From a virus, in IMG/VR virus record IMGVR_UViG_3300020057_000496, positions 1-64,000 of that record: DNA of 64,000 nucleotides, one strand, 5' to 3'. The position numbers and the translations under genes were made by a program. Under the pieces are notes generated by a model, which was given only the letters and a program-made list of their open reading frames with translations, was not told where the DNA came from and searched no databases. Positions within the stretch are counted from its first letter, which is position 1; each line of letters opens with the position of its first letter. Positions 7,966-64,000 of this stretch are shown piece by piece.

Positions 7966-10900
7966 ATGTCTCAAAAATACAACGTCTTCTATTCATCTCA
8001 GGACAGCATTCATACTGAATGTTTTAGGTTTAGCCTTTCGTCGGCTGAGTCGTTTACCCCCGAACCACAGGGGGTAAGTATAGAAATTACGAGCATCCCG
8101 ACAGGGAATTACGCCGGGCAGTACGTGGTCGTCGCAAAGTCCGGCCTACCTACTTGGTACGGCGTAGTAACGCACCAAGTAGACGCAACACATCTGTACG
8201 TAGTCCCTATTCAGTCAAGCGCAGATACCGGGAATATATTCCAGGCATACGCAAGCCCCACCACCGTCACTAGCGAGAAACAACCGCACGTCACGCTCAG
8301 TATAGACCTGTCGGACGCGCCGGACGGCACGTATACGTACGTCATCGCCGGGTCGTGCTCGATAGCTAGTTCGAAGTCTGGAAGTGGCGGTGTTGTCAGG
8401 CCGTCCTTCTTACGGAATTGCAAGCCGGGGGATATCTTTTCTAACGACGAACCGCGCTTCCTGGGGCGCTATCACTTCAATAACGGCTCGTACGTCGCGT
8501 CCCGCGAGACGCTTGAGGACACTTACCTCTATAATATCGCCCATTCGGTCACGCTTGCTGCTGGCAGCGTAACTGAATTCCATATCGCGGCCGAAGCCAC
8601 ATCGACCTCGGTGGGGTCGTGCTGGTTGCGTCAAGGCCGACTTGCGGCGTTCCGTGTCGGGGCAAAGCAAGAAGTAGATGGAAGTCTTGACACTACCGGG
8701 GTCAGTTCGTCTGGTGGCTGGGTAGTCGGATCGACAATCACGTTGAGTTCGACTGACGACTACATGATCCTGGCATGTGCTGCCGGCGGACACGGCTCCA
8801 TTGCCGTCGGTGGTTGTCAGATGAGACTGACCATCGGCGGCGTTACCTGGCAAGAAGTTACCTTTCTACCACCAGCAACGAATTCACTTATCTCGTTTGG
8901 CGCCTGGATTTGGCGACCGGCCCTTGCGTCTGGTACGGTCTTGGATCTCTCCGTTAATAACGCCGGAAGTGATACTGCGACTATGGACAGGATGTATCTG
9001 GTTGCTATTCCGATGTCCGGACAAACTGGGTACGGGTTTGACTATTCCTCTAGTGGGTTCTTGTCATCTCATAATTTTACAGATACGAACTCCACGAGTA
9101 CGCTGATATGGAATGAGGGGATTGCTTCCGGCACACATACCCCCGTTAATCGTAAATATATCGAAGTTATTAATACGAACGTACGTAAGGCTGCCGGTGA
9201 CAATCGGGCGTTTGCTCGTCCTGTTTTCCGAGACGGACTATCTACGGGCGTCGCCGACCGTGGATATGTTGGTCCAGGCATAGCGCAATGGAAGGGGTTC
9301 TGGTTTGCACGAACAAATCCTTACCTGGCCGGAACCACGACTAATGCAATCGAAACTCGTGCGGCCGTAGACGACGGTAACAATGTTAAATTAACGAATA
9401 CATTTTTCCTATTCCTGCCGGAATATGGCGAACTAATTCCAGACGAGCTAACGCCGACGACGATCATTGCCGACGTAGAGTCCGGCCTGCAGTTCAAGTC
9501 GTGGAACCTGCATACCACGAGCGTTTATAAGCGGATTATTGCGGACATAGCGTTGGTCTCGCGCGTCCTCCGGAACACGGCCGAGCTGACGGAGCTGGCA
9601 ACGAAGCCGGTTGATGCAGCAGCCTGGAGTAGTACCGCCACTGACTCTTGGTATTGGGATCTCGGCGAGATGACGATATACGTCAAGGTCGCCTCGTCTC
9701 CGGCAAATGACGATCAAACATTGATTGTCGTGGCGCTGGACACCTACGGCCGTACGTCAGAAATCCTTTACGACACGGACGGAACGTTGATTCCTTATGA
9801 ATCCAGGCTCCAGAGGATTCCGGGCCTACAGCAGGACGTTCAGGCGCGCGGGACGCAGAGTCAGACCTCCAGTACTCTCGGATCTATTGTTATTTCGGCG
9901 GCTGACAGAAAGTTCGATAAGAGAATTACTAGCCGCATCTACGAGGGCCTGCGAGTAACTGTCCGACGTGGGTACTCTTCGCTGTCCAAGAGTCTCGACG
10001 GGTTCCATGTAATCGCGAAAGGCATCATGGGGATGCCCAGGATGGACACGAGCAGGCTAGAGCTAAAACTCTACGATACCGGCGTAATTCTAAATCGGGC
10101 ACTGGACGATACGACGATCTCTGTCTATCGCGGAGCCGTACAGACGGTAGGCCAGGCACTGCCGGTCATCTACGGAACTCTGAAGCGCGTCCCGGCATTC
10201 CGGGTAACGCATTTCGGCACGCCCGTTAATGGCATTACCAAGAATACATATAAGATAGCGTCGCATTACCTGAAAAGTATAGATGCAATGTACCTGAACG
10301 GCACAACCTCTACGGCGACGACGATGACGAACACCTATCCAGCTAGCGCCGCCTTTACTGGTGTCTTATATGATTCGGGGGCTACGGACAACGGTTGGAA
10401 CGCCGACGTTGTATACGTTGATGTGACTGGCCATACATCCGATAATGTATATACCGGAACGCTCATGCAGAACCCCGGAGACATCGCCAAGCACCTCCTG
10501 CAGAACTACCCCCGTGTCAAGTCCGACCAGGTTGGCGGATTTGCAACTACGGACGTTATCACTTCCGGTCCTACCATAACGGCCGCAGTGTTCAATATCA
10601 ACGTAGCTAGCAGCGCGGCGTTCTCGATTGGGGACGTCATAAAGATTCGTGAGGGTGCGAACTCCAATCGGTGCTATGTTTACGCCAAGCCCAGCGGTGT
10701 ATCAATTAGTGTAGCAACTTTGTATTATACCGATGACGCCGCCGTGGGGACGGCGTATACGACGGCGGCCGACGTAGATCTCGTTGAGAAGTCCGGCGGG
10801 ATGGCGAGTACGATGCTCCATACCGAATCGTTCCGGCTCCTGGACCGGAAGTGGCGCAAGAAGCTTTCGGCTGGATTTCTTGTCCGCCGGTCCCCTCCCC

Positions 10901-19413: not shown

Positions 19414-19613
19414 GGCGTTACGTTGTGAGGGCTGTGGGTGTAGACAAGAGTCACACCCGGTGGATCAATTTCTCTCCGAGCGATACGGGGAACTTACACT
19501 AGGGGCCTGTACGGACTGCCAGCAATGTGAGTTTTACGACACGGACGGGGGGTACGACGATGAGGACAACTGGGATTCTTGAGTCGATTCCGGGACGGTC
19601 GCTTTACGGTGAC

Positions 19614-19789
19614 CGACAGCGAGCGCAGGCCCCGTCCCTTAGGGCGGGGTAAGCGAGCCATGAATGGCGGCAGGGCATGCCGTCACTGCGCGTGGAGGCA
19701 CAACGGTGCCGTTGAAGCGCGAACCCACTCGGGAGGTGCCGTATACTCCCCGAGGAATCCCCGTCCCCTTAGGGCGGGGAGGATGTCAA
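19614..19789 (+). mobile_element. Non-autonomous IS200/IS605 derivative (PATE/MITE): left end + omega-RNA/right end
   Basis: Near-identical to both ends of the 26201-27484 element with tnpB deleted after the ATG. Has two subterminal ccccgtccc..gggcgggg hairpins, ends in TCAA and is preceded by TGAC. Confidence 0.88.
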
Positions 19790-19859
19790 TAAGGGCGGGC
19801 CTATTTAGGCCAGGTAGGATGTCAATCATGCATCCACCGCTACACGAAAGAGGAGTTAG

Positions 19860-20117
19860 GTGGGGAGTACATTGAAATCTGTAACAACCTTACGGGTTAC
19901 GCCAGAGGTTGATTGTGACGCCAGTATTTGCTATAATTGTATTGCATTTAAGCTGTTGGACGGCCCCCAGGACGCCGAAGGCGAGCTTGGAGGCGAATGT
20001 AGGCTGAAGCCACCCGTAGTAGCAACGATAGACGAAGACGGCTACCCCATGACCGTCTGGCCATTAGTTATAGCCCAAGGCTGGTGTCTGTGTTTCGGCA
20101 AACGACCCACGACGTGA
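19860..20117 (+). CDS. Cys-rich phage protein (C..C...ECR..PP...WP.V....WC)
   Basis: Common small phage Zn-binding-like pattern. Confidence 0.55.
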   Translation: MGSTLKSVTTLRVTPEVDCDASICYNCIAFKLLDGPQDAEGELGGECRLKPPVVATIDEDGYPMTVWPLVIAQGWCLCFGKRPTT

Positions 20118-20126
20118 GGATGAGAT

Positions 20127-20489
20127 ATGTCTCTCAATACGGACGTGGGTGTTATGGGCAAAACTCGCAAAATAAAGGTTCGAAATAAAAGATACGAAAT
20201 CCGGCAGGTCGAGAATATTTCGGAGTCCGTCCCGGACTTGATTGCTCTGAATTACTCAAGGCCATTCAAGGATACCATAGGTCTCCTGCACCCCAAGAAA
20301 GACTTGATCCTCATTACTGAGAAGCTAACCGAAAGAGAAAAGGAAAGTACGATTCTACACGAGATTATTCACGCTTGCCTGCCTAACTTGACGGAAAAGA
20401 ATGTCAAGAATCTAGAGATTCGCATCTTCCCGACACTCTATAATAACGGACTGCGGTTCCTTAGTACCAGGAAGAAACGAGGACAGTAG
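20127..20489 (+). CDS. HExxH zincin-like (ImmA/IrrE-type) small protein
   Basis: 'STILHEIIHA'. Confidence 0.6.
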   Translation: MSLNTDVGVMGKTRKIKVRNKRYEIRQVENISESVPDLIALNYSRPFKDTIGLLHPKKDLILITEKLTEREKESTILHEIIHACLPNLTEKNVKNLEIRIFPTLYNNGLRFLSTRKKRGQ

Positions 20490-20660
20490 TGTCTGTGAAT
20501 ATTCACTCCAAGAATCCAACTATACGGGACAAGCGTGGCAAGGACACGTTTAATTCGTTTAGCATAAAGAACAACAAGGACCCGGCGGCCACTCCGGGCA
20601 AGATTGGCTCAAGTAAGGAGTACCGGCAGAACTACTACAAGGTATTTAAGAAGAAATGAC

Positions 20661-20837
20661 CGACAGCGAGCGCAGGCCCCGTCCCTTAGGGCGGGGTAAG
20701 TGAGCCATGAATGGCGGCAGGGCATGCCGTCACTGCGCGTAGAGGCACAACGGGTGCTGTTGAAGCGCGAACCTACTCGGGAGGTGCCGTATACTCCCCG
20801 AGGAATCCCCCGCCCTTTAGGGCGGGGAGGATGTCAA
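20661..20837 (+). mobile_element. Second PATE/MITE copy
   Basis: Near-identical to 19614-19789; TGAC upstream, TCAA end. Confidence 0.88.
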
Positions 20838-21272
20838 GCAGTTCGGTTGTGCCGCAACGATATAGTTGCCTTTTTTCGAACCAACCGAAGAGACTTCACG
20901 TGACGGGGCAGCCACGGGCGCCTGGTCGCGGGGTAGTTACGTGGAAATTGTTTGTTTTCCTGACTCATCGCGAGAAAGATGCGGCGATCTCGCGGGTAAT
21001 GGAAGCCAAGGAAGTTGTTCGGATGGACAAGCGCTATCAGTTCCTGAACGAACCATACAGTGATGTTCCTCACTATACTACAGACCAGACATTAGTTGGT
21101 TCGATGTTGAACTACATTCTATCACGTAGTTTCTGTGTTGACCTGGAGTTATCTACTTCTGGTGCACACGTCATGCGTGTCCGCGACGCCAATAACGGGG
21201 TCGCTTTACACTACCACGACCTGCAGGTCTTAATAGGAGCGGCCGTACTTTTTACAGCCGGTGAATTGGTTT

Positions 21273-22946
21273 ATGAGTGACTGTTCGAATGAATTTGAAA
21301 CAAGCCGACGCGGCCGACTTATTGGTTGCTTCTTCCTTGCATTGATCGTCGTCCTTTGGTGTGCCTTTGCGTTCGCCTCGACGGTTATCCTTCCGACAGA
21401 GGACGACATGATCGACGCAAGCGACGTTGTCGCCGTCGCGAAGGTGACAAGCATTACTTCTTACGACACCGACGTGGGCATACGGACACTAGTAGACTTC
21501 GCAGTCAGTGAGGTACTGAAGGGAACCCCGCCGCCGGGACTGGCTGTCCGTGAACTTGGCGGCAAGGTCGGAGAAAATGTCTTCTGGATTCCGGGTTCCC
21601 CGACTTACCGGGTTGGCGAACGTGTGATGGTATTCCTTGACCAGCGGGAGGACGGGACTTATCGAACCAAGCTCCTTGATGCCGGTCGTGTTCCGGTTCT
21701 TCCTGACGGAGTTGCGCGGAGTATGTCTGGGGACACGCTGGACACCTTCAAGTCGAGACTCACAAGTCGAGTCCTGCAGCGTAAGCAGGAATTACAGTCC
21801 CGTTCGGCGAGAGCGGCCAGCGCGACCTTTATGGTTCAGCCAGCGCCCCTTTCCGGTCCTGCCGAGAGCCAGGCAGAATTTCGTTTCATGACCGATCCTC
21901 CGTCGCTCTGGCTGAACAGGCCAGTCATGGTCTACGGCGACCCCGCTGGTGACGCCAAGATTGGACCAGTCGAGTCAAGACGTGCCGTGGCTGACGCGGC
22001 GGCTTCATGGTCAAGCGAGGCGAACGTAATCTTCGCCTACGCCGGGGACACGCCAGCAGTTGGGTACGCATGTGTCCCGGACAAGCTACTCGTGCAGTTC
22101 CGGGATGTCAAGAACGACATCGAGGACCCCAGTAACTGCTCGGGCGTTTTGGCTATAGGTGGTTTCTGTACTAGTGGCCTAGTGAGCGGCAAGTACCGCA
22201 TTGCATCAGGGGCCGTAGTTTTTAATAATGGCTGGGAGGGCTGTTCGTTCTGGAGCGCAGACAATATCGCCGAAGTCATGACTCACGAGTTCGGCCATGC
22301 GGTAGGACTTGCTCATTCCGCCGAGAGTGGCCAGACCTCGACGCCACACCTGGCAGACGCAACGATGTACTGGACGGCCCATTTCGACGGGCGACGTACC
22401 GGTCTGCGTGCGTACGACAAGGGGGCCATTCAGTCCCTTTATGGTTCAGTCAGGGCCTCGCCTGTACCGACGCCAGTCCCAACCAGGACGCCAGTACCAA
22501 CTGCGACAGTAGTCCCAACGGCGACTCCGACACCTATCCCTACTCCGGTCCCGACAGCCACGACGACGCCCGGCCCGACTGGCTCACCGGCCGGTCGATT
22601 CCTTGAGGTCCGGCAACTCCTGATTAAAGGTTCTGCCCGGAGGGGGCGTTCGGGGACACTCACGTTCAAGCTCGTCACAACCGAGAAACTCCCGAAGGAC
22701 CGGCCGACTGTTTTGTTCGCCAGTGAACTAGGCGGCAGTGTCCTGAGTAATCAGAATATTCAGAACGTCCAGACGTACGGGGAAACCCTGACCTTCCGTG
22801 CTGTCAATGTACCAAGTATTTTTTATCGAACCAGTATCAGAGTGGTCGTGATCGTCGGGCAGCGAGTCGCATTCGAGACGCTGACTTGCACCGCGCGTGA
22901 TCTTCTGCTCGGTACTACTATTTACTGCAGCCTAATAAAGGACTAG
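21273..22946 (+). CDS. Secreted/membrane-anchored matrixin-family (metzincin) metalloprotease with Pro-Thr linker
   Basis: N-terminal hydrophobic signal; HEFGHAVGLAH (HExxHxxGxxH); Met-turn 'ATMY'; (PT)n linker. Confidence 0.85.
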   Translation: MSDCSNEFETSRRGRLIGCFFLALIVVLWCAFAFASTVILPTEDDMIDASDVVAVAKVTSITSYDTDVGIRTLVDFAVSEVLKGTPPPGLAVRELGGKVGENVFWIPGSPTYRVGERVMVFLDQREDGTYRTKLLDAGRVPVLPDGVARSMSGDTLDTFKSRLTSRVLQRKQELQSRSARAASATFMVQPAPLSGPAESQAEFRFMTDPPSLWLNRPVMVYGDPAGDAKIGPVESRRAVADAAASWSSEANVIFAYAGDTPAVGYACVPDKLLVQFRDVKNDIEDPSNCSGVLAIGGFCTSGLVSGKYRIASGAVVFNNGWEGCSFWSADNIAEVMTHEFGHAVGLAHSAESGQTSTPHLADATMYWTAHFDGRRTGLRAYDKGAIQSLYGSVRASPVPTPVPTRTPVPTATVVPTATPTPIPTPVPTATTTPGPTGSPAGRFLEVRQLLIKGSARRGRSGTLTFKLVTTEKLPKDRPTVLFASELGGSVLSNQNIQNVQTYGETLTFRAVNVPSIFYRTSIRVVVIVGQRVAFETLTCTARDLLLGTTIYCSLIKD

Positions 22947-22949
22947 GGA

Positions 22950-23450
22950 ATGAACCAATTTGAGAAGCAAGTACGTGAGTTCCATGCCCACTTTGGCGCA
23001 ACTGTCGGGGACGCCCGCAACCCCGGACTTAATGAGTCGGCCCTTCGTAAGAACTTACTGCTGCAAGAGGTAGACGAGTTTATTCACGCAGTCGAATGGG
23101 GAGATTTTGACGGATCAATCCGAGAGCTACTTGACATTCTTTACGTGACGATCGGAGCACTTGTTGCATTCGGGGTCGAGGACATAGCGAGCTATTTTTC
23201 AGAATTGCACGAGGCTAACATGCGCAAAGAGGGTGGTTCGACTCGTGAAGACAGAAAGATCGTAAAGCCGGAAGGTTGGCAGCCGCCACACATCGGTCGG
23301 CTAATCGAGGCCCAACGCCTACGCGGCGAAGGTTCGGACCCGGCAAAGCCAGTGACAGGGAAGCCCGTGACTACGAAACCAGTGACGACGAAGCCTACGA
23401 AGCCAAGGAAAGAAGGGGCCAGTGTCTCAACTGAAAACAATCCTGGCTGA
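22950..23450 (+). CDS. MazG-like / PRA-PH nucleoside triphosphate pyrophosphohydrolase
   Basis: 'V.EFH..F', 'EVDEF', 'ELLDILYV..G' and 'H.ANM.K.......D.KIVKPEGW.PP'. Confidence 0.85.
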   Translation: MNQFEKQVREFHAHFGATVGDARNPGLNESALRKNLLLQEVDEFIHAVEWGDFDGSIRELLDILYVTIGALVAFGVEDIASYFSELHEANMRKEGGSTREDRKIVKPEGWQPPHIGRLIEAQRLRGEGSDPAKPVTGKPVTTKPVTTKPTKPRKEGASVSTENNPG

Positions 23451-23676
23451 GATTCGGAATCTCATCGACGCCCTTGAGTCCGCCGAAAGGGCTAAGTTCG
23501 AACAGGAGAACATAGCCGGGGAACGTAAGTTCGTTCTCGTTAAGCTGAAAAAAGGACTCATAGAGCTACGTGCACAGAGAGAGAAGGCACGCACTTCGCC
23601 AATTCGAGGGTCCTTCTGGCACGCGATTGACGACTGTACTAGTCTACTGGGGGAAATAGATGAAGTCATCGAGTAG
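23422..23676 (+). CDS. Hypothetical coiled-coil protein
   Basis: ORF in the operon. Confidence 0.45.
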   Translation: MSQLKTILAEIRNLIDALESAERAKFEQENIAGERKFVLVKLKKGLIELRAQREKARTSPIRGSFWHAIDDCTSLLGEIDEVIE

Positions 23677-23971
23677 TATTTTTGAATTCTTCGGGGCGCT
23701 AGTAGTATTACTAGTGGCCGTCGTAGCCTCGACGGTTGGTTTTAGCATACTCTTGTCGGTCGGCTATTTCGTGACTGTACTAGTCATGCCGTTATGGCAG
23801 GTACCACTGGCCAACTTCTTCCCGTTCTGTGTCGGGGTCGGCCTACAAGGAAAAATCCTGTTCACCGTTTGTTCGCCCCCATTCGGCAAAGATGACGGGG
23901 CACTAGCGCGGATCTTCGTGTTGCTCCTGGTCGGCCTCATCGCCGTAAGCATGCGATATTTACTGTTGTAG
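23660..23971 (+). CDS. Small multi-TM membrane protein
   Basis: Three hydrophobic segments. Confidence 0.5.
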   Translation: MKSSSSIFEFFGALVVLLVAVVASTVGFSILLSVGYFVTVLVMPLWQVPLANFFPFCVGVGLQGKILFTVCSPPFGKDDGALARIFVLLLVGLIAVSMRYLLL

Positions 23972-24019
23972 GGTCCAGGCCGTGGTGCTACAGTGCCCCC
24001 GTTGAGTCAATGTCCGATT

Positions 24020-24069
24020 CAATCAGGTTGCTCGGTCGAGCAATCAGGTTGCTCGGTCGAGCAATCAGG
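24020..24069. repeat. 21-bp tandem repeat (2.4 copies) containing the palindrome TTGCTCG-N2-CGAGCAA
   Basis: caatcaggttgctcggtcgag x2 + caatcagg, immediately upstream of the sulfatase RBS. Confidence 0.85.
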
Positions 24070-24080
24070 AGGAGGAATAC

Positions 24081-25328
24081 GTGAAAAAGATTCTCGTCGT
24101 AGCACTGCTTGGCCTACTGCTAACTCCCGATTTTTGCTGGGGAAAACCGAACATCCTGGTCGTAATCGCGGACGACATGGACTGGGTTACGTTCAACGCG
24201 ACGCCGGGCCTGGCCGAGATCGCCAGTCAGGGGGTGTTGTTCAATGCGGTCACGAGCACGCCGCTCTGCGGGCCTTCCAGGGCCTCGATCTTGACCGGCC
24301 GGGCCGCGCACAATCACCGTGTTCTGGGCAATGAGCGGAGCGCCCATAACGCGGCCTGGTACGCCAACGTACTTGGCAAGACTTTTGCTGACTACTGCCA
24401 GGGTGAAGGGTACCGGACGGTGATGGCCGGTAAGTACGCGAATCCATTCGACCAGCTCGACACGACTGGCTGGGATTCCTGGATTCCGCCCGAGGGGCGC
24501 GGCGAGCGCCAGGTTGGCCCATTCTGGCACGACGTGATGGTAGATCGGGTTGTCCTGGACATTGAGGCGCACCCGGACCAGCCTACGGTCGTCTGGTACA
24601 GTAGCACGATCCCCCACGGCCCCCTGATTCCGAGTAACGCCTACGCCGGGGTCATGGCAGGACTAACCCTACCAAAGGGGCCGAGCTTTAATGAGGCGGA
24701 CGTAAGTGACAAGGTGTCCTCCGTCTCGCTATTGCCGCTGTTTAGCGAGACTCAGCTAGTTGACCTAGAGAAGCGTTTCCGGCGGCGCGTGGAGATGTCG
24801 TTGTCGCTGGTGGACGGGATTCGGCGGCTGACAGAGGCACTGTCCGGCCGGCCGCTTTACGTTTTCTTCGTGTCCGACAACGGTTTTTTCGAGGGCCAGC
24901 ACCGAATCTTCCAGGGGAAGGGCTTGCCGTACGAAGAGGCGATCCGGGTGCCGATGTTCGTTGTTGGCGCAGGGGTCACGCCGGGTACCTCGCCGGCGTT
25001 AGTGTACGCCGGGGACATCGCGCCGACCGTCACCTCGCTCTGTGAGGCGAGTCCACGCGAAATGGACACGCATACATTAATCCCTCTTTTATCGAACCAC
25101 CTGCAGCCCTGGCGCAAGCGCGTTTTGGCCGAACACGGCTGGCGTGCGATCCGGACGGAGGTTCGGAAGCTGGTTCGATTTAGTGGAGGTGGTCGGGAGC
25201 TATTTCACCTTGGCGAGGACCCGTACGAGCTGTTGAGCAGGAGCAAGACTGTCCAGAGCCTAGAGGCCTACTTGGACAGGATGCTTGCTTGTTCGGGCGA
25301 AGATTGTTGGGAGATTGAGACAGAATAG
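24081..25328 (+). CDS. Formylglycine-dependent sulfatase with signal peptide
   Basis: 'PNILVVIADD', CGPSRASILTG (CxPSR), 'AGKY', 'SDNG', 'K..PYEE.IRVP' and 'DPYE'. Confidence 0.92.
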   Translation: MKKILVVALLGLLLTPDFCWGKPNILVVIADDMDWVTFNATPGLAEIASQGVLFNAVTSTPLCGPSRASILTGRAAHNHRVLGNERSAHNAAWYANVLGKTFADYCQGEGYRTVMAGKYANPFDQLDTTGWDSWIPPEGRGERQVGPFWHDVMVDRVVLDIEAHPDQPTVVWYSSTIPHGPLIPSNAYAGVMAGLTLPKGPSFNEADVSDKVSSVSLLPLFSETQLVDLEKRFRRRVEMSLSLVDGIRRLTEALSGRPLYVFFVSDNGFFEGQHRIFQGKGLPYEEAIRVPMFVVGAGVTPGTSPALVYAGDIAPTVTSLCEASPREMDTHTLIPLLSNHLQPWRKRVLAEHGWRAIRTEVRKLVRFSGGGRELFHLGEDPYELLSRSKTVQSLEAYLDRMLACSGEDCWEIETE

Positions 25329-25330
25329 GC

Positions 25331-25359
25331 TTGACATGCCGTCCCTTAATGAGTATTTT
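25331..25359 (+). promoter_or_regulatory. Sigma70-like promoter
   Basis: TTGACA-N17-TATTTT; an alternative TAAAAT lies at 25363. Confidence 0.55.
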
Positions 25360-25369
25360 TCTAAAATCT

Positions 25370-25464
25370 GGCGGTAGGGCGTGCCGTTAATGCGCGAACC
25401 TACTCGGGAGGTGCCGTATACTTCCCGAGGAATCCCCGCCCCTTCAGGGCGGGGAGGATGTCAA
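25370..25464 (+). ncRNA. Stand-alone shortened TnpB omega-RNA scaffold/right end
   Basis: Matches the 3' part of the PATEs with an internal deletion between gcgcg repeats; ends GGATGTCAA; no intact left end. Confidence 0.6.
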
Positions 25465-25527
25465 GAAGTGCTCGATTGGTCGAGCAAGAGATTGTTCGAT
25501 TGGTCGAACAATCCGAAAGGGAGAGAC

Positions 25528-26058
25528 ATGGCACCGAAGAATAACGTGATGAAGCTGGCGACCTCCGATACGGGCGACACCGACGCGCCGACGGACGCAA
25601 CCGGAGACGCAACGGACGAGACGACCTCGACCATGGCGTCACCGACCATGGACGTACACACCACGGACGTACACACCACGGTCATGGTGGAACAGTTCAT
25701 CAGGCGGCGCGAAGAGGCCATTGCGGCGTCGGCATCGATCGATGCCGAGATGGACACAGCAATCTCCGATCTTGAGGCCCAACTGGAGGTTCTGTACGGG
25801 GCGCGCGGTTCGCGCCCGAAGCAGGGTACTCGCCGGGCCGCAGCCCGCCGTCAGGTTCCGATCGGGTCCGACCGGCTGAACTGGGACGAGAAGCTGTCCG
25901 CGCAGGAAGCCCACTTCACCATCGACGACTTGATGACCGACAAGGCGACCGCCGAACGCGGTCGCCAGGCATGCCACCAGGCTGTCAACCGCTGGGCAGA
26001 GAAGGGGCTAGTGAAGAAGCTGGGCGACGGGCGTATCCGCAAGAACGCCACCCGGTAA
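25528..26058 (+). CDS. Putative DNA-binding protein (acidic N-terminus, coiled coil, C-terminal winged-helix-like region)
   Basis: RBS GAAAGGGAG; C-terminal 'FTIDDL...QAVNRWAEKGLVKKLGDG'. Confidence 0.5.
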   Translation: MAPKNNVMKLATSDTGDTDAPTDATGDATDETTSTMASPTMDVHTTDVHTTVMVEQFIRRREEAIAASASIDAEMDTAISDLEAQLEVLYGARGSRPKQGTRRAAARRQVPIGSDRLNWDEKLSAQEAHFTIDDLMTDKATAERGRQACHQAVNRWAEKGLVKKLGDGRIRKNATR

Positions 26059-26088
26059 GCCGTCGGCCGACAAACTCGTCCTCGACGG

Positions 26089-26130
26089 GGAATGGGGAGT
26101 CTGATATAAGCAGGCTCCCCATTCCTGTTT
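26089..26130 (+). terminator. Intrinsic terminator
   Basis: ggaatggggagtctg...caggctccccattcc followed by tgttt. Confidence 0.65.
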
Positions 26131-26200
26131 GTGGGACGTGAGGTGTTATGGACGCACATGAAGCCGCCGGGAGACTCCGGCAGGAATCCGAAACTCTTAC

Positions 26201-27484
26201 CAACAGCGAGCGCAGGCCCCGTCCTTTAGGGTGGGGTAAGCGAGCCATAAATGCGTCAACGCCTACAGCCCACGACGGACGAAGCCGAAGCACTTCTGGA
26301 GCATGCTGCTCAGGCACGCTTCGTCTGGAATCTCGCCCTTGAGCAGGCGAACCAGTACCGCCACGATCGTGGTCCGACGCCAGGATGGGCTGCGCAATGC
26401 CGCCAACTCGTGCAACTTCGGGCGGAGCACAACTGGATTGGTACGGGATCGTCAAGCATTCAGCAGCAGGCGCTCAAAGACCTGGCGCAGGCGTTTATTA
26501 ACTGGTGGAAACGTCCGGGCCACTTTGGGCGTCCGACTTGGCGAAAGCGTGGGCAGCACGAAGGCTTCCGCGTCGTGAACGTCACCGAGAGGTCAGTCGA
26601 GATTCTGCACCGGAGGGCGGCCACCGTCTTCGTTCCCAAGGTTGGTCGAGTACGCTTTCGAATCACACGACCGGTGCCGCTCGGCATCAAGTCGTATCGC
26701 ATCCGACGGGACGCGGCGGGTCGCTGGTGGCTGGCGTTCGCGGTCAAGCCGCAGGCGCTCACGAGAGGCGAAGGCGAGGTCGGTATCGACCGTGGCGTCG
26801 CACAGTCGCTAGCATTCTCCGACGGGACGTTTAGTCAGACACCGTCGCTGTCGTTGCCCGAACGGCGCCACCTGTTGCGCCTACAGCGCAAACTCGCGCG
26901 GCGGGTGAAGGGCAGTGTCCGTCGTGGCCGGGTCAAGCTCGCCATCGCTCGGCTGCGGGCGCGCGAGTCGGACCGCGCAAAAGACTGGGTCGAGAAGCAG
27001 ACGACGCGGATCGTCCGCGCGTCGCGTCTCGTGGTGATCGAGAAGCTTCAGATTCGGAACATGGTGCGTAGCGTCAAGGGCTCCATCGAGGAGCCCGGCA
27101 AGAACGTCCGCCAGAAGGCGGGCCTGAGCCGTGTGATCCTGGCGCAGCGCTGGGGCTTGTTTGCCAGGCGCCTACGAGAGAAGTCGGAACTAGCCGGTGT
27201 TGAGCTGATCGAAGTCAACCCGGCGTACACGTCGCAGCAGTGCTATGCGTGCGGCCACACGGCACCGGAAAATCGCGAGAGCCAAGCGAAATTCAGATGC
27301 CAATCGTGTGGCCGCTCAGCGAACGCAGACACCAACGCGGCGAAGAATATCCTTGCGGCAGGGCGTGCCGTCAATGCGCGTGGAGGCACAACGGTGCCGC
27401 TGAAGCGCGAACCTACTCGGGATGTACGCCGTGCCGCGTAACTTCCGAGGAATCCCCGTCCCTTCAGGGCGGGGAGGATGTCAA
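26201..27484 (+). mobile_element. IS200/IS605-family (IS1341-type, tnpB-only) element
   Basis: TTAC upstream of the left end, subterminal hairpins, TCAA right end, tnpB inside. Confidence 0.9.
26251..27441 (+). CDS. tnpB: RNA-guided endonuclease TnpB
   Basis: 'ARFVWN'; RuvC-I GIDRG; RuvC-II VIEKL; zinc finger CYAC/CQSC; RuvC-III NADTNAAKNI. Confidence 0.95.
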   Translation: MRQRLQPTTDEAEALLEHAAQARFVWNLALEQANQYRHDRGPTPGWAAQCRQLVQLRAEHNWIGTGSSSIQQQALKDLAQAFINWWKRPGHFGRPTWRKRGQHEGFRVVNVTERSVEILHRRAATVFVPKVGRVRFRITRPVPLGIKSYRIRRDAAGRWWLAFAVKPQALTRGEGEVGIDRGVAQSLAFSDGTFSQTPSLSLPERRHLLRLQRKLARRVKGSVRRGRVKLAIARLRARESDRAKDWVEKQTTRIVRASRLVVIEKLQIRNMVRSVKGSIEEPGKNVRQKAGLSRVILAQRWGLFARRLREKSELAGVELIEVNPAYTSQQCYACGHTAPENRESQAKFRCQSCGRSANADTNAAKNILAAGRAVNARGGTTVPLKREPTRDVRRAA

Positions 27485-27669
27485 CAAGAACGCCAGGTAC
27501 CTAGAGTCACTGGCCGCAAGTGCGACCGGGAGAGACGGCCGAGTTCCGATTGCCAGTAGGCTGTTCGATCAAGCGGTAGAGAAGGCCGTTACCGCGTATC
27601 TCCTGGCGATTGGGAACTCACGGGATCTCACACTCTTCATTCAACGCGAGCTGTGTTCGAGGTGCGTAG

Positions 27670-40851: not shown

Positions 40852-42030
40852 ACGGATGAAAAATCCATACTGGTTCGTAAGGAAATATGCGAAGTACGCG
40901 TTGCAGTCACTGCAACTCGCAGGCAGCTTGGTTGAGTTCTGTAAGAAGTGTGGTCGGAAACAACCGTTGGTCTGGACTGCTCCAAATAATCTATGGCTTG
41001 AGATTAACGGGAAATCTGGCGGGGTACTTTGCCCCGAATGCTTCCAATCTTGCTGTGACGCACGCGGAATCCCTGTTTGCTGGGAACCAAAAGTTAGAAC
41101 CAGGGCACGCGGAAGTCAGCCAGGAAGGTAGGGTAAATTCGAATATGCCCGGTGTGTATTCCTATGCCGCGTGCCTCGCCCGTATTTGGTGCGTGCGTAG
41201 AGTACGTTACCTGTCGCCGTTGTCTCGCAATAAGAAGTCAACAGAGTCAGCGGACTGAAGGGAGATAGTCCATGGATGCGTTACCACCGAATCCACCGGC
41301 CGTAGTCAGTGCGGTATGCCCAGAACTACAGGTGCGGTCAGTTGAACTAGGGAAGCGCTTCTTTATTGTCGAGTACTGTGTTTACCGAGGGTCGGGATTT
41401 TACGCCCCGGCTACCGTAGACAGCCAACCTCACTACCCGGCACAGGCAACTGTCTATGAACTCAAGGGGGGTGTCCGGGTACGGCTCGGTCGTACATTCC
41501 CGGCTTCATGGATAGACCGAGGCTGCTTCGAAGACGATCCGGCGACACTCGTGTCTGAGGCGACAAGGAACTTCGGGAAGAAGTCCGGGAAGGTTCGAAA
41601 GAAGTAATTAGGGAGTGTGACGTAACGCAGTTTCGCTGGTCCTTTAAGCCAGAGTCGGCCAGATTAGCCGCGTCCAACTTGGTCCCATAGTTTAACAGGT
41701 TAAAACGGGCTCCTTATAAGAGCTTGACGTACGTTCAAGTCGTACTGGGACCACCTACCTATTAACGAAGGACTTAACTGTGGCGATTTCTAAACGTAGA
41801 CTTGGTTGTAAGTGCACCTGCCATACCAATAATTGGCGGCTGTCGGGGTACAGGAGCCATGCTGACTGCTTGAACTGTACGAGCTTCCTGCGCTTCGAAC
41901 CTAAAGTGCGGAAATTCCTTGAGCGAACCTTCAAGCCGAGCGTCGCCCCGATCCTTGGTCGCTCAACACTCCCGACCTTCAAACGGTCCCGAACGGTCCC
42001 GAACTCCTGCGCTTAGCCACGCATTCCTCC

Positions 42031-42531: not shown

Positions 42532-42835
42532 AAGTCGGAACTAGCCGGTGTTGAGCTGATCGAAGTCAACCCGGCGTACACGTCGCAACGCTGCTACTCC
42601 TGTGGCCACACGTGCGCATCGAATCGCGAGAACCAAGCGGAATTTCGTTGCGTGTCGTGCGGCCACGAAGCGAACGCGGACATCAACGCGGCGAAGAATA
42701 TCCTTGCGGCAGGACATGCCGTCAATGCGCGTGGAGGCACACGGGTGCCGTTGAAGCGCGAACCTACTCGGGAGGTACGCCGTGCCGCGTAACTTCCGAG
42801 GAATCCTCGTCCCTTCAGGGCGGGGAGGATGTCAA
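42532..42835 (+). pseudogene. tnpB: 3' fragment of a tnpB element with intact omega-RNA/right end
   Basis: First ~55 nt are identical to 27181-27236; similarity continues to GGATGTCAA. Confidence 0.85.
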
Positions 42836-57050: not shown

Positions 57051-57305
57051 TCACCGTCTGTCCTCCTGCGCGCGTGCATCGTTAATCGCTGCGGCGCAAG
57101 CGGCGAAAGCCTCATCGCGCGACATGTCCCCTAGCCTGATTAGGGCTGCTCGATTGAGGGTCGAGTAGTCGTATGTATTGATCTGGCCATCTAGCGCCAG
57201 GTCGCAGACCGCGCCCAGGAAGTCGTCCCCGTGCTCGTATGCTGCGTGGCGCAGTGTGCTGATCTGACCGAAGCTGATATTGTGCTTGGTTGTCTCGGTA
57301 CTCAT
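57051..57305 (-). CDS. Hypothetical protein, duplicated within the 62003 ORF
   Basis: About 215 nt near-identical to 62243-62458. Confidence 0.6.
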   Translation of the reverse strand: MSTETTKHNISFGQISTLRHAAYEHGDDFLGAVCDLALDGQINTYDYSTLNRAALIRLGDMSRDEAFAACAAAINDARAQEDRR

Positions 57306-59986: not shown

Positions 59987-61896
59987 TACCCTTTCCCCCA
60001 TTGCTGTTTTGCGATATTGAGAGACGAGGAATAAAGCTCCCCGTCGTTCGACAAACATCCGTAGCAGAAGATCACGTCGGGTCCTGCCATGTCGTATTCT
60101 ATGGCCATGGCCGTATTCGCAGAATTATGGGTCCCGCACGGGCCGCGCGGGTCCGGGTCGCCGCCGTCTACTCGGTACACCCTGGCGCGACACCTTGCAC
60201 ACTTCCCGACGTAAGTGAGAATCTCGCCGGCCGACGTGACTTGTGGCGCATTGGTTCGAAAGGACAGATTACTCATGGATAACCTCGACCTTTTCGGCTA
60301 GAAACACACTCCCTATGTATCCGGGCTTATCCCGGCAGTCGTCAAGGATTACTGACACCCTGAATGGCTTGGCGGTCGTGGAACCTGCATACCACGAGCG
60401 TTTATAAAATTTTGGCGTGTCGTTAATGACGTAATTCACGGTGCCAAGCCTTCCGTCCTGTAGCTTCACCCGATCACCCCGCGTCATATTCAACCTCGAT
60501 TTCTTCGTCGTCGAACCCGCAGCATGGGTCCCCTACGTCGAGCGTTTGCCCACATTCGTCGCAGTCGTATTGCTTGACCCATCGGTCAAGATCACGGTCG
60601 AAACGGGCGTTTGTGTTCGGGCATCCGCGCTCATGGCACGGCACGCCACAGATTGAGAGAAGCTCGCACTGGTCACATGACAGTCGGTAAGCTCTTATGC
60701 GCGGCACGGGTCCCCCTATTCGTCAGTTTTAATCTCAATCCCAAGTGCGATCAATTCCGACAAATTCATCGGCGGATTGTTCAATTACTGTTGGCATATC
60801 CGCCCCTTACGTCGTCCATGGGTCCCTCAATAATCCTCGGCGTCGATCGGTTCGTCTACGTCGGACTGATTGTAGCCGGACAGAATTTCCGGACGAAATT
60901 GTCCGAGCTTTTCCTTTTCGCACTTGTCACACACGCGACAAAGGTAAACCCCCTGCGCGTCAAATTCCTCCCACGACTCGTCGCGGGAATGTTGGCAGTA
61001 GTTACTCATAGTGAGCCTAATCCCTGCCCCTGTGGTACTTGTTGTCGTCCGAGGATAACTTGCCACACATGGCGATTGGCGATCGTATAAGTAAATCCTT
61101 CATTTCGGGACCCTCGACAGTATTCGTCCTGGTAGGGGCGTGGCGTGAAGTAGTTAGCGTGAGTGACGACGGCCTTCGGGTCGCGATCCAGAATTTCCTG
61201 AGCGACGGGTGCCCATTTATCCAGAATCTCCTGCGGCCACCCACCGGGGATGTTCTCCCCGTTGAGTTGTTCGATTATGGTCATTTACTTACTCTCGGAG
61301 TAGGTGTTTTCATTGCGAAAGCCTTTCTGCGTTGTCCTGTCGCCTTCTAGTTACAGGGGACTAGCTCGTAATCGTGTACCCAGCTATAGCCGTACGGTCG
61401 GCCAGCGGCAAATTCCCGCTGGACAAGAAACTTCGTGGCGGGGCCCTCCGGCGTTCCGGGTATAACGTCAATTACGTATCCGGACAGGCTAACCTCGTCG
61501 TCGAGGTCGACTAGCGCGGTTCGACCCATTTGCATTTCGCAAAGGTCGTTCCGCGTGTTGCGGTAAAGATATACCGCCGCCTGCACCTTGAGCTTGACTC
61601 GATCACCGAGGCGAACAGTCGTCATTCTCCTATCTCCTTGGCGCTTCTCCCGAGCGCCGGTGTCCGTCACGACCTGCACCCGCAAGCCGCGCGGCGGTCG
61701 CCGCAATCGGAGCAGACGCCACCCGCGTGGCGCGTGGCTACTGCGGGCGGGGCAGGGTACCGCTCGCGATACGCGGCGGTAGCGGCGCAGTCCCGCTCCG
61801 CGCACACCTGGCATGGTGCCCAGTATCCGTCTGCGCCCACGACTCGTGGTGTGCGGCACCGAAGGCAGGCCTCTTCGCTGCTCGTCATTGGTCCTT

Positions 61897-62019
61897 CCCC
61901 CTGGCACTCTCCAGAGCGCCCATCCTGCGAAAGTGCAGGCGGAAAGGCTCGCCATGGGCGCAAGCCTGACCGTCTAGGCTCTACGCGGGACCGATCGTAT
62001 GGTCAAACATCAATTTCGG
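61897..62019 (-). promoter_or_regulatory. Repeated promoter + structured leader cassette, copy A
   Basis: TTGACC(62006-62001)-N17-TAGAGC(61983-61978), conserved ~85-nt leader, RBS. Confidence 0.75.
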
Positions 62020-62644
62020 CGCCCCTGTGGTAGCTCAGGGCAGCCCGTCTCCTGGCCCTGACGGCCAGGCGGAGGTCTTCGGCCTGCTTGGCCCCGTCGT
62101 TGTCACTCCACAAATAGGCGGCGCGAACGACGGCGTAGCTGGCTTCGAGGAGAACGTCGGCTCGTCTCTCTTCCTGCTCTTCCTCCTCGCAGACTGCGCA
62201 CGAGCACCCGGGCTGCGGGGCTGGGTCGTCGCCCACCAGCTCGTTGACCGCTGCGGCGCAAGCGGCGTAAGCCTCATCGCGCGACATATCCCCTAGCCTG
62301 ATTAGGGCTGCTCGATTGAGGGTCGAGTAGTCGTATGTATTGATCTTGCCATCTAGCGCCAGGTCGCAGACCGCGCCCAGGAAGTCGTCCCCGTGCTCGT
62401 ATGACGCATGGCGCAGCGCGCTGATCGTCGCGAAGCTAATATTGTACTTGGTTGTCTCCTCGCAGACCGCGCACGTGGCGTCCTCGCTGTGCGCGTCCAT
62501 GACGTGTGCAGCCGGGCACCAGGCCTTGCCGTAGCAGCACGGGCCGATGCTCGTGCCGTCCTTCAAGCGGGGGATCGGCCAGCCCTGCGCGGCAGCCTCG
62601 GCCGTGATCGCCTCGCCACAGCCGTCGCACTTCTCGATGCTCAT
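62003..62644 (-). CDS. Mosaic Cys-rich hypothetical protein
   Basis: Contains a copy of the 57051 ORF; ends AEIDV like the 63490 ORF. Confidence 0.55.
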   Translation of the reverse strand: MSIEKCDGCGEAITAEAAAQGWPIPRLKDGTSIGPCCYGKAWCPAAHVMDAHSEDATCAVCEETTKYNISFATISALRHASYEHGDDFLGAVCDLALDGKINTYDYSTLNRAALIRLGDMSRDEAYAACAAAVNELVGDDPAPQPGCSCAVCEEEEQEERRADVLLEASYAVVRAAYLWSDNDGAKQAEDLRLAVRARRRAALSYHRGAEIDV

Positions 62645-62691
62645 GACGTCACCTCTGTTGCTGCGTCAGCTTGATCGTCTTTGCGAATCAT

Positions 62692-62787
62692 GGTCTCTTC
62701 CCCCTGGCACTCGTTCCTGAGCGCCCATCCTGCGAAAGCGCAGGCGGAAAGGCTCGCCATGGGCGCAAGCCTGACCGTCCGGACTCT
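62692..62787 (-). promoter_or_regulatory. Leader cassette, copy B (promoter degenerate)
   Basis: Same core sequence; precedes a 16-codon ORF (62691-62641) coupled to the 62644 start. Confidence 0.7.
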
Positions 62788-63371
62788 CAGGTACGCATGG
62801 GCATAAGCAGCGCCTTGCGCCCGGTATTAGGGCACGCAAGTTCGATAGGATGATCCCCGACCTCTGCCGCATTGTCACCGCGGAGCGTAAGCGTGATGGC
62901 TACGCCGTGGCCGTTTCGGGCACCGCCCTCGTCTCCCGCCAGTGCCTTGGCTAGCTCCGCGATGTAGCGCGCCGAGAAGCGCACTGTCGCGAAAATCGGG
63001 TGCGCCGTTGCGTCATTCAAGACACTCCGGTAGTCGAAAAACTTGTCGCCATCGGTCTCGCGCTTGAGCACGAGCTTCGTACCATCCGCCGAGCAAATGG
63101 CGACATGCCCATTAGCCAGCGTTTCGGCAAGGTTTATCTCAAGCTTGACCCCCTTGCCTACGCCCTTGGCCACCTGCGCTGCCTCGGTCGCGGAAAAGAG
63201 AATCTCCGCATCCCCCAGCTCGGCCGCGCCATCAAGCGGGATAACAAGCAGTCGGTGCCCATCGGTCGAGACAAGTCCGTCGCGATTCAGGCAGACCCGC
63301 CGATACGTTCCGCGCTTAGGGTCAGTGCTGGCCACGTTCGTTGCTAGGTCATTCTTCGTGATGTTGATCAT
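62787..63371 (-). CDS. DNA polymerase III beta-clamp-like fragment protein
   Basis: 'STDGHRL', 'F.DYRSV', 'FSARY' and C-terminal 'ALLMPMR'. Confidence 0.7.
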   Translation of the reverse strand: MINITKNDLATNVASTDPKRGTYRRVCLNRDGLVSTDGHRLLVIPLDGAAELGDAEILFSATEAAQVAKGVGKGVKLEINLAETLANGHVAICSADGTKLVLKRETDGDKFFDYRSVLNDATAHPIFATVRFSARYIAELAKALAGDEGGARNGHGVAITLTLRGDNAAEVGDHPIELACPNTGRKALLMPMRT

Positions 63372-63506
63372 GGTCTCTTTCTCCCCTGGCGCTCGTTCCA
63401 GAGCGCCCATCCTGCGAAAGCGCAGGCGGAAAGGCTCGCCATGGGCGCGAACCTGACCGTCTAGGCTCTACGCGGGACCGATCGTATGGTCAAACATCAA
63501 TTTCGG
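63372..63506 (-). promoter_or_regulatory. Promoter + leader cassette, copy C
   Basis: TTGACC(63493-63488)-N17-TAGAGC(63470-63465) plus leader. Confidence 0.75.
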
Positions 63507-63903
63507 TTCTCAGTGCTTCTTGGAAGCACTCGCTAATGTGATCCTTGATCTCGTTCCGGTTTTCTCCGGATATCGAAACATCAATTTCGGCCGCAAGCGA
63601 AGCCTTGACTTTGACCTCGTGAGAGGTCCATCCATCATAGCTCCCATTATCGTCCATGTGATGGAACGACACACGGAAGACCAGAAGTTCCCCGGTGCTG
63701 GCGTCGGGCATAAGGGTGGTTCCGTCGTCGAACCCACCCCCGCTAGGCATGTACTCGCGAGTTAGCGCGCGAGCGGCTATGCCGTGATCAATCGCCCATT
63801 GCGCCGCGAGAACATTGCTAACATCGCGGGCGAGGCGATCCTCGCAGGTACGCCTTGCGTCGCACATACCGGCCAGGACGCGATACAGCTTTGCTTTTCT
63901 CAT
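63490..63903 (-). CDS. Conserved hypothetical phage protein
   Basis: 'PSG.GFD.GT' and 'FHHMDDNG.YDGWT.H.V.V..SL'. Confidence 0.7.
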   Translation of the reverse strand: MRKAKLYRVLAGMCDARRTCEDRLARDVSNVLAAQWAIDHGIAARALTREYMPSGGGFDDGTTLMPDASTGELLVFRVSFHHMDDNGSYDGWTSHEVKVKASLAAEIDVSISGENRNEIKDHISECFQEALRTEIDV

Positions 63904-63931
63904 GTTATTCTCCGTATGTCGCGACTAGCGC

Positions 63932-63982
63932 GCGCAGGCGGAAAGGCTCGCCGTGGGCGCAAGCCTGACCGTCCGGACTCTA
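63932..63982 (-). promoter_or_regulatory. Leader cassette, copy D (partial; -35 beyond window)
   Basis: -10 TAGAGT plus the 5' half of the leader. Confidence 0.65.
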
Positions 63983-64000
63983 CCTGCCATTCCTTTTGCC

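Follow-up and report, generated by a model that had tools for sequence, protein, structure and literature searches.

A cassette repeated between small genes of an uncultured phage, IMG/VR record IMGVR_UViG_3300020057_000496 (166,852 bp, estimated 87% complete), is read here as a portable structured intercistronic leader that serves as a seam for homologous recombination, with a probability of roughly 0.6. The stretch analysed, hereafter the window, is the first 64 kb of this record (positions 1-64,000), and the cassettes lie in it between 61.9 and 64.0 kb as four copies in the same orientation on the minus strand, three of them full (B, C and D) and one, A, consisting of a 5′ half. Each full copy contains three predicted hairpins, called P1a/P1, P2 and P3 from the 5′ side, and ends in a purine-rich Shine-Dalgarno (SD) sequence and an ATG. 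The reading is carried by natural recombinants with breakpoints in the cassettes and by compensatory changes in the hairpins of divergent relatives.

The full copies are 88-97% identical over about 100 nt, which should make them good substrates for homologous recombination, so that the gene behind any copy could be moved, lost or exchanged. A preliminary description of this DNA, made from the letters of the window, had pointed to a repeated cassette ahead of successive small genes, and this is confirmed with the qualification that the fourth copy is a 5′ half only. It had also proposed that copies be counted beyond the window, and a count over the whole record by BLAST, fuzzy matching and two covariance models gave zero extra copies. 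The genes on the minus strand follow one another as a 137-aa open reading frame (ORF), a 194-aa clamp-like ORF, a 16-aa remnant with a 213-aa ORF, a 73-aa Cys-rich ORF and a 92-aa ORF. Evidence that the 194-aa ORF resembles a clamp is weak (PHROG 'DNA polymerase processivity factor', E = 2e-10; a weak PDB beta-clamp match, E = 0.099), and Pfam families were found in 0 of 10 neighbouring ORFs.

Relatives were obtained by one metagenome scan with an invariant 19-mer, which gave ten related contigs, part of the samples being labelled microbial mat. Retrieved loci are designated by L numbers, and the covariance-model searches covered the record and these loci.

Recombination between copies of the cassette

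Around the cassette 14 distinct combinations of upstream and downstream genes were found in the related contigs, made up of six upstream contexts and at least eight downstream genes. L190 is the exact product of a crossover between copies B and D. It is collinear with the record through cassette B and resumes from cassette D, with its positions q1300-2054 corresponding to 64139-63383 (99.2%) and q1933-2661 to 62019-61291 (99.9%), and the two alignments overlap in one cassette. The 1,487 bp that it is without hold the clamp-like gene, copy C and the 213-aa gene. In other pairs the gene behind the cassette has been replaced, as in L033 and L060 compared with the window and also in L008 and L011. 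Breakpoints are likewise found inside the element: copy A stops after P1a/P1 and the 5′ arm of P2, L087 starts at the 3′ arm of P2, and a second leader type of the relatives, described below, has the P3-SD part only.

Behind copy C lies the 16-aa ORF MIRKDDQADAATEVTS (62641-62691, minus strand). In L007 and L090 the start equivalent to that of this ORF opens a 102-aa ORF, which is followed by a hydrophobic ORF of about 60 aa ending in ..CEVPS*, and on this sequence comparison the 16-aa ORF is a deletion remnant of two genes that are intact in L007.

These arrangements strongly support a role of the cassettes as seams at which homologous recombination brings in, removes and swaps genes among related phages, and the recombination module of the preliminary description is borne out by natural recombinants that include the exact B × D deletion. 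Because a natural population holds both the parent arrangement and its exact deletion product, it provides a clean case for studying the exchange of accessory genes.

A 218-nt segment was found duplicated at 93% identity, 5 kb apart, at 57079-57296 (in an 84-aa ORF) and at 62241-62458 (part of the 213-aa ORF). The mosaic breakpoint of L013 (record position 62233) lies at the edge of this paralogous patch, and the patch may therefore be another recombination seam.

The three-hairpin leader in the window and in divergent phages

Copy B (63369-63506; all copies are on the minus strand) is an extended cassette with P1a/P1 at 63427-63459, P2 at 63411-63426 and P3 at 63388-63407. It carries TTGACC at 63488-63493, TAGAGC at 63465-63470, a purine-rich SD at 63374-63387 and, at 63369-63371, the ATG that opens the 194-aa clamp-like ORF. 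Its 5′ edge is formed by the last 5 codons (..EIDV*) of the 137-aa ORF, whose TGA stop (63490-63492) falls within TTGACC. Copy D (61886-62019) is extended in the same manner, its 45 upstream nt being equal to those of B, including a ..EIDV* that here belongs to the 213-aa ORF. It has P1a/P1 at 61940-61972, P2 at 61924-61939 with an A·C top pair, P3 at 61903-61920 with a loop of 4 nt, TTGACC at 62001-62006, TAGAGC at 61978-61983 and the ATG of the 73-aa Cys-rich ORF at 61886-61888. In copy C (62689-62788) P1a/P1 is found at 62745-62777, P2 at 62729-62744, P3 at 62706-62725 and the ATG at 62689-62691. The 5′ end of this copy is the TGA stop (62787-62789) of the clamp-like ORF, read as GAGAGT, the -35 box is absent, and its ATG opens the 16-aa remnant ORF, which overlaps the start of the 213-aa ORF (ATGA). 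The cassette occupies the full gap from the upstream stop codon to the next start codon, the stop codons at B, C and D falling within the cassette or at its 5′ edge.

Copy A (63931-63982) comprises TAGAGT (63977-63982), P1a/P1 (63939-63971) and the 5′ arm of P2, and scores 43.8 bits with R1, a covariance model built from the window's lineage only. After the 5′ arm of P2 it passes into an unrelated short leader, whose SD is ACGGAG and which leads to the ATG (63903) of the 137-aa ORF, and copies identical to A are present in L013, L033, L190 and L192. A degenerate P3-like hairpin (GGCGC-9 nt-GCGCC, 61640-61658, minus strand, in a unit at 61623-61658) is followed by AAGGAGAUAGGAGA and the ATG (61623-61625) of the 92-aa ORF, and has the 11-nt GGCGCTCGGGA in common with P3 of related cassettes. 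The unit scores with neither full covariance model and has the appearance of a diverged copy limited to the P3-SD module. Inside the 137-aa ORF the 15-mer GAAATTGATGTTTCG (63574-63588, minus strand) repeats, apart from 2 mismatches, the 5′ edge of B and D that encodes ..EIDV.

The minimum free energy (MFE) structure of B and C predicted by RNAfold consists of three consecutive hairpins followed by a free purine-rich SD, and the RNAalifold consensus is made of the same three hairpins. The MFE of the leaders was -43 to -45 kcal/mol (z = -1.9 to -3.1), and for B and C it was -43 kcal/mol (z = -1.9 to -2.3). P1a/P1 has the form CGG-UC-(AGGYUYGC, 7-nt loop, GCGAGCCU)-UU-CCG, in which P1 measures 8 bp and P1a with P1 gives the longest stack, 11 bp interrupted by a 2×2 internal loop. 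P2 (CCUGCG-CUUU-CGCAGG, 6 bp) immediately abuts P1a/P1, P3 (GGCGCUC-loop-GAGYGCC) has 7 bp and a variable loop, and 3′ of P3 come the single-stranded purine-rich SD and ..GACC-AUG-A.

The window's lineage was represented by 14 distinct full cassettes, which are near-identical with few differing sites. Three of the four stem changes among them are C/U opposite G, a change that keeps pairing in the sense RNA only, and the wobble therefore fits the sense strand alone; the fourth breaks the top pair of P2. Double-sided pair changes were not found among these cassettes. The loop of P3 varies freely, with indels (UGGAAC, AGGAAC, GGGAAC, AGGAGA, UGGA and GAAC), and the loop variants UGGAAC, AGGAAC and UGGA as well as the GAG(C/U)GCC variation were seen just as first described. 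Within the lineage the variation in these sequences is only compatible with the structure and does not demonstrate it.

Divergent leaders were obtained by a search with the clamp-like protein and retrieval of the encoding contigs. L193, L194 and L197 each have a leader ahead of a clamp-like homologue, the L193 protein being 52-53% identical to that of the window, the L194 protein (P0004) 84% identical to that of L193 and the L197 protein 77% identical to P0004. R1 finds the three leaders at 35-49 bits. They have kept UAG(A/G)GCCCGGACGGU, with the hairpin beginning 8 nt after UAG, the CGG-2 nt-(P1)-2 nt-CCG architecture and CCUGC(G/A)..GCAGG, and they also retain a P3 of 7-8 bp with a 6-nt loop, the SD and ..GACC(A)AUG. 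Their P1 stems (GCGGGCCCGG/UCGGGCCCGU; CGGCGCGC/GCGCGCCG; GGGCCC- and GGCGCGC-type) and P3 stems (CGCCGCG/CGCGGCG) differ from those of the window, and the top pair of P2 goes from G-C to A-U in L193 and L197, with the A·C of window copy D as an intermediate. In R1-based alignments that include the three divergent leaders 11 of 24 pairs change on both sides and 98.8-98.9% of the cells pair. This figure of 11/24 was reached by 0 of 500 shuffles, and slid controls gave 1-2 pairs. Since hairpins of the same geometry stand in the same place with replaced sequence, the three-hairpin RNA of the sense strand is taken as the real structure, and its conservation with compensatory changes across four lineages is supported by these alignments. 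The preliminary description had named a lack of covariation among homologues as a finding that would speak against it. The compensatory changes that were found favour the three-hairpin fold and not the two alternating folds it had put forward.

Against the three-hairpin leader weighs first that the covariation depends on three divergent sequences, and that these were aligned by a model which was built with the same structure and leans towards it. An L193-type P1 sequence also recurs in L194 within a further intergenic hairpin, and whole helices may therefore have been exchanged by recombination as modules rather than altered by stepwise compensation. The MFE structure of copy D is a different fold in which the SD is sequestered. 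The excess of variable sites at unpaired positions (Fisher p = 0.039) weakened to p = 0.10 without the 19 columns that the search pattern had fixed, and within the lineage the cassette is conserved no better than the flanking genes (93-99%).

More distant relatives showed repeated elements of their own. GGAGCGCTCCGGCGCGACCCCGC is found in both intergenic regions of L195 (1-170 and 720-862), which are repeated leaders of that more distant relative, and the intergenic regions of L193, L194 and L196 contain recurrent hairpins with a CGGCAA loop, and CGCACGAGGAG before start codons. The start context GAGACC-ATG-A is common to the more distant relatives and the window.

The element had initially been called an undescribed cis-regulatory RNA, and the Rfam search gave no match to it. 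At the gathering threshold the whole window yielded one tRNA (41681-41753) only, and the region 61500-64000 with E up to 10 yielded two chance-level matches, both outside the cassettes. BLAST of the cassette region against 50,697 phage records gave zero matches. Pattern scans of IMG/VR for the P3 hairpin and the 5′ arm of P1 returned unrelated palindromes and coding matches only, and a scan of IMG/VR and 185,579 species genomes for the conserved 5′ motif plus CCGCCTGC returned nothing except L007.

Proposed function and alternative readings

The repeat had at first been described as a four-copy promoter, a claim that fails in the window and in the homologues. TTGACC-N17-TAGAGC is found in B and D only (8/12 matches to consensus), where the TGA within TTGACC terminates the ORF before it, and at 16-18 nt spacing the best match to TTGACA in A (TAGAGT) and C (GAGAGT) is no more than 3/6. 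The -35 box is present in 2/4 window copies and in 2/6 upstream contexts. TAGAGC has no T at the last -10 position and was not called by a consensus scan. In L013 the -35 box was lost through a 16-nt deletion and the cassette was retained. A -35 box was found in 0/3 of the divergent leaders L193, L194 and L197; TAG ends the upstream ORF in L193 and L197 and apparently in L194 as well (read from the sequence, the ORF not being called), and L197 reads TAGGG. The cassettes are read as mainly intercistronic because the -35 box is mostly missing, TAG is a stop codon in homologues and promoter-like sites lie upstream of the array. B and D may, judging from TTGACC-17-TAGAGC, be weak internal promoters. 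TAGAG as a genome-wide promoter motif was rejected, the extended motif being confined to the cassettes.

A second leader type was found in the relatives (L007:8770-8850; also L008, L011, L031 and L090), in which a near-consensus TTGACA-N17-TACATT is followed by 17 nt and then by a P3 hairpin, SD and GACC-ATG like those of the cassette. It heads a run of small genes, replaces copy B before the clamp-like gene in L008 and L011, and is missing from the window's record. Its near-consensus promoter shows that strong host-type promoters exist in this phage group, unlike the cassette.

These facts bear on whether the cassette is, in the strict sense, one of the promoter early stem-loops (PeSLs) known from T4-type phages, that is, a promoter with a 5′ untranslated region whose transcript would start at about GACGG, 7 nt after TAGAG(C/T), and have P1 as its 5′-terminal stabilising hairpin. 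Such a reading would agree with the exact 17-nt distance from TTGACC to TAGAGC in B and D, with the four positions between TAGAG and GACGG being the most variable of the element, as in a discriminator, with the occurrence of TTGACT-16-TAGAGT elsewhere in the record and with the use of host-type promoters by these phages in their TTGACA-17-TACATT leader. It is made unlikely by the scarcity of the -35 box in copies and contexts, by the incomplete and uncalled -10, by the cassette outliving its -35 box in L013, and by the divergent leaders with 0/3 -35 boxes, stop codons in the place of TAG and TAGGG in L197.

On the preferred reading of a portable intercistronic leader, a promoter region further upstream (record positions of about 64.5-64.8 kb) would drive joint transcription of the accessory genes, and the cassette would act on the RNA level, giving each incoming gene the same self-contained and context-independent translation start. 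The SD would be kept free just 3′ of P3, and the hairpins would shield the ends of each cistron from neighbouring sequence and RNases. The mode of action of the RNA would be stability, insulation or that of an operator.

The main alternative is an operator or processing site recognised by a protein, which would explain an invariant core beside covarying stems. The core (GACGG...CCGCCUGC...GCAGG) would then be bound by a phage or host factor and the genes would form one regulon, the candidate factors being a translational repressor in the style of T4 RegA, gp43 or gp32, an HK022 put-like processive antiterminator, or an RNase III-like endoribonuclease in the style of the T7 early region. Parts of the stems and junctions are indeed invariant in four lineages while other stems covary, the element precedes the same clamp-like replication-type gene in all lineages, and its copies stand in series between genes as RNase III sites do in T7. 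Such a recognition site is nevertheless quite unlikely, since no RNA-binding protein emerged as a candidate, the 11 bp of the longest coaxial helix, interrupted by an internal loop, are few for RNase III, serial copies in one operon would be needless for a processive antiterminator and the P3 loop is unconserved in the window's lineage. The findings give no specific pointer to the put/nut-like antiterminator or the processing site that the preliminary description had listed. A new cis-acting phage RNA family, with this core recognised by a protein and copied before unrelated accessory genes to combine a post-transcriptional regulon with reshuffling, is likewise put forward as a doubtful, tentative extension.

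A selfish or neutral repeat would persist by being copied together with the genes, its hairpins being incidental GC-rich palindromes. Conservation within the lineage that is no higher than that of the flanking genes would suit such a repeat, as would the abundance of several kinds of GC-rich intergenic hairpins in the related contigs. It is very unlikely given that the architecture was retained with different stems at the same position in three divergent lineages, that the wobble pairs suit the sense strand alone and that every copy has the same orientation and the same distance to the SD and ATG.

A two-state switch, in which a GCGCCCAU/AUGGGCGC helix alternates with P3 or P1 and controls the ribosome-binding site or termination, is hardly credible. 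GCGCCCAU and AUGGGCGC are a perfect 8-nt complement in B, C and D, and both substitutions of the GCGCUCGU variant retain pairing via G·U, but 7.4% of dinucleotide-shuffled leaders contain a perfect 8-bp complement by chance. When enforced, the helix lies 8-14 kcal/mol above the MFE with an ensemble probability of about 0, it is not favoured even in a partial transcript, and it is broken in L193 and L194, where 3 and 5 of the 8 pairs are lost. P3 and the SD do not overlap, no conserved U-tract follows any hairpin and an Rfam match is absent. The two mutually exclusive folds first proposed are abandoned on this account, the alternative helix being negligible and not conserved. The GGCG/CGCC and CCUGC/GCAGG hairpins that had been placed inside a GCGCCCAU/AUGGGCGC junction overlap by two C residues, and the MFE structure has three hairpins instead.

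Further readings of the RNA were rejected. An intrinsic terminator was not called, and the UUU after P1 occurs in the window's lineage only and is missing in L193 and L194. A leader peptide from the ATG in the P1 loop was dismissed: its frame terminates differently in B, C and D and is shifted by loop indels, and the ATG itself is ACG in copy A and absent from this place in L193, L194 and L197. Programmed read-through of the stop was rejected because the lineages enter the cassette in different frames and the extended product would not be in frame with the gene that follows. A tRNA-like or ribozyme reading of a possible four-way junction closed by a GGUC/GACC helix had no Rfam support.

Neighbouring sequences and known systems

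Upstream of the array, at about 64500-65100 of the record (L093:500-1100), promoter-like sites of the form TCGAC(A/G)-18-TAAAAT face the array from within three to four 113-nt tandem repeats, and the same region has runs of the 12-nt unit TCGAGCCGTCGG; it may serve as a control region or origin. The ORF upstream of copy A contains a perfect 103-nt tandem duplication at 64037-64242 of the record (L004:1604-1809), which shifts its frame. The duplication is missing from L192, L013 and L033, which are otherwise 99-100% identical, and is either a recent event or an assembly artefact. At 67-73 kb of the record (minus strand) a different hairpin, GTCGAAGTACGAC, recurs beside the start codons of a neighbouring array of mini-genes, and a hairpin before the start codon appears to be a general habit of the accessory regions of this phage. 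Elsewhere a perfect 33-nt direct repeat with a small hairpin (CGTGG..CCACG) occurs at 9498-9530, in a 2,117-aa ORF, and at 60375-60407, in a small-gene region. Repeat families at 19610-27493 and 42532-42835, with a GGGGCGGGG/CCCCGCCCT hairpin ending in GGATGTCAA, accompany a duplicated coding segment for a TnpB-type zinc finger.

The portal protein matches the Pfam family Phage_portal, and its best matches among phages have at most 26% identity, so no host could be assigned. RNA polymerase was absent among the 10 largest ORFs, and no search aimed at T4-type core genes was made.

PeSLs are known from the T4-type phages RB49/phi1, T4/PST and KVP40/nt-1, and are defined by a strong sigma-70-consensus promoter, an AT-rich upstream region and one terminator stem-loop, with about 50 per genome (Arbiol et al. 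2010, PMC2839356; Comeau et al. 2014, PMC4122927). The present cassettes resemble them in being small, repeated and intergenic, in bridging the space between one gene's stop codon and the SD and start of the next, in their stem-loops, in the ORFans downstream and in their plastic region, where close relatives differ by genes deleted, inserted or replaced through recombination between copies. They differ in that most copies lack a -35 box and that the conserved part is a GC-rich three-hairpin leader of about 80 nt downstream of any promoter, in the number of copies (four compared with about 50 per genome), and in a fold that is kept with compensatory changes in divergent phages. A stable stem-loop, a stop-to-start span before ORFans and recombination between copies were all found here; a sigma-70-consensus promoter, the defining trait, was not, and the element is therefore not filed as a PeSL. 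The likeness to PeSL cassettes that had been suggested earlier thus stands for recombination and position and falls for the promoter.

The start-associated sequences (SAS) and extended start-associated sequences (ESAS) of Cluster K mycobacteriophages combine a 13-bp SAS located 3-8 nt before gene starts with 17-bp inverted repeats (Pope et al. 2011, PMC3203893). Like the present cassettes, they are conserved motifs that stand in a single orientation at the translation starts of some genes only, lie behind an imperfect inverted repeat whose spacer varies, and are kept with a gene family across related phages; compared by description, this likeness is one of position and not of sequence. The present element differs in having three hairpins over about 80 nt, a separate SD and copies that act as recombination seams.

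The cassettes also recall, in the serial repetition of similar structured elements between early genes, a well-known arrangement in T7. The RNase III sites of the T7 early region are structured elements in series between co-transcribed genes, each being one long irregular hairpin of about two helical turns. An irregular duplex of about 20 bp, as in T7, was not found, the helices here being of 6-11 bp.

What is new here is a promoter-less leader of three hairpins backed by compensatory changes, found in an unrelated group of uncultured phages together with a pair of parent and deletion product. It extends the recombination-seam regulatory cassettes from T4-type coliphages to unrelated, uncultured, GC-rich phages of mat metagenomes, and indicates that a recombination seam need not be a promoter and can, as here, be a conserved structured RNA leader. 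With compensatory support and no Rfam family, this leader is a concrete candidate for a new cis-regulatory RNA of phages.

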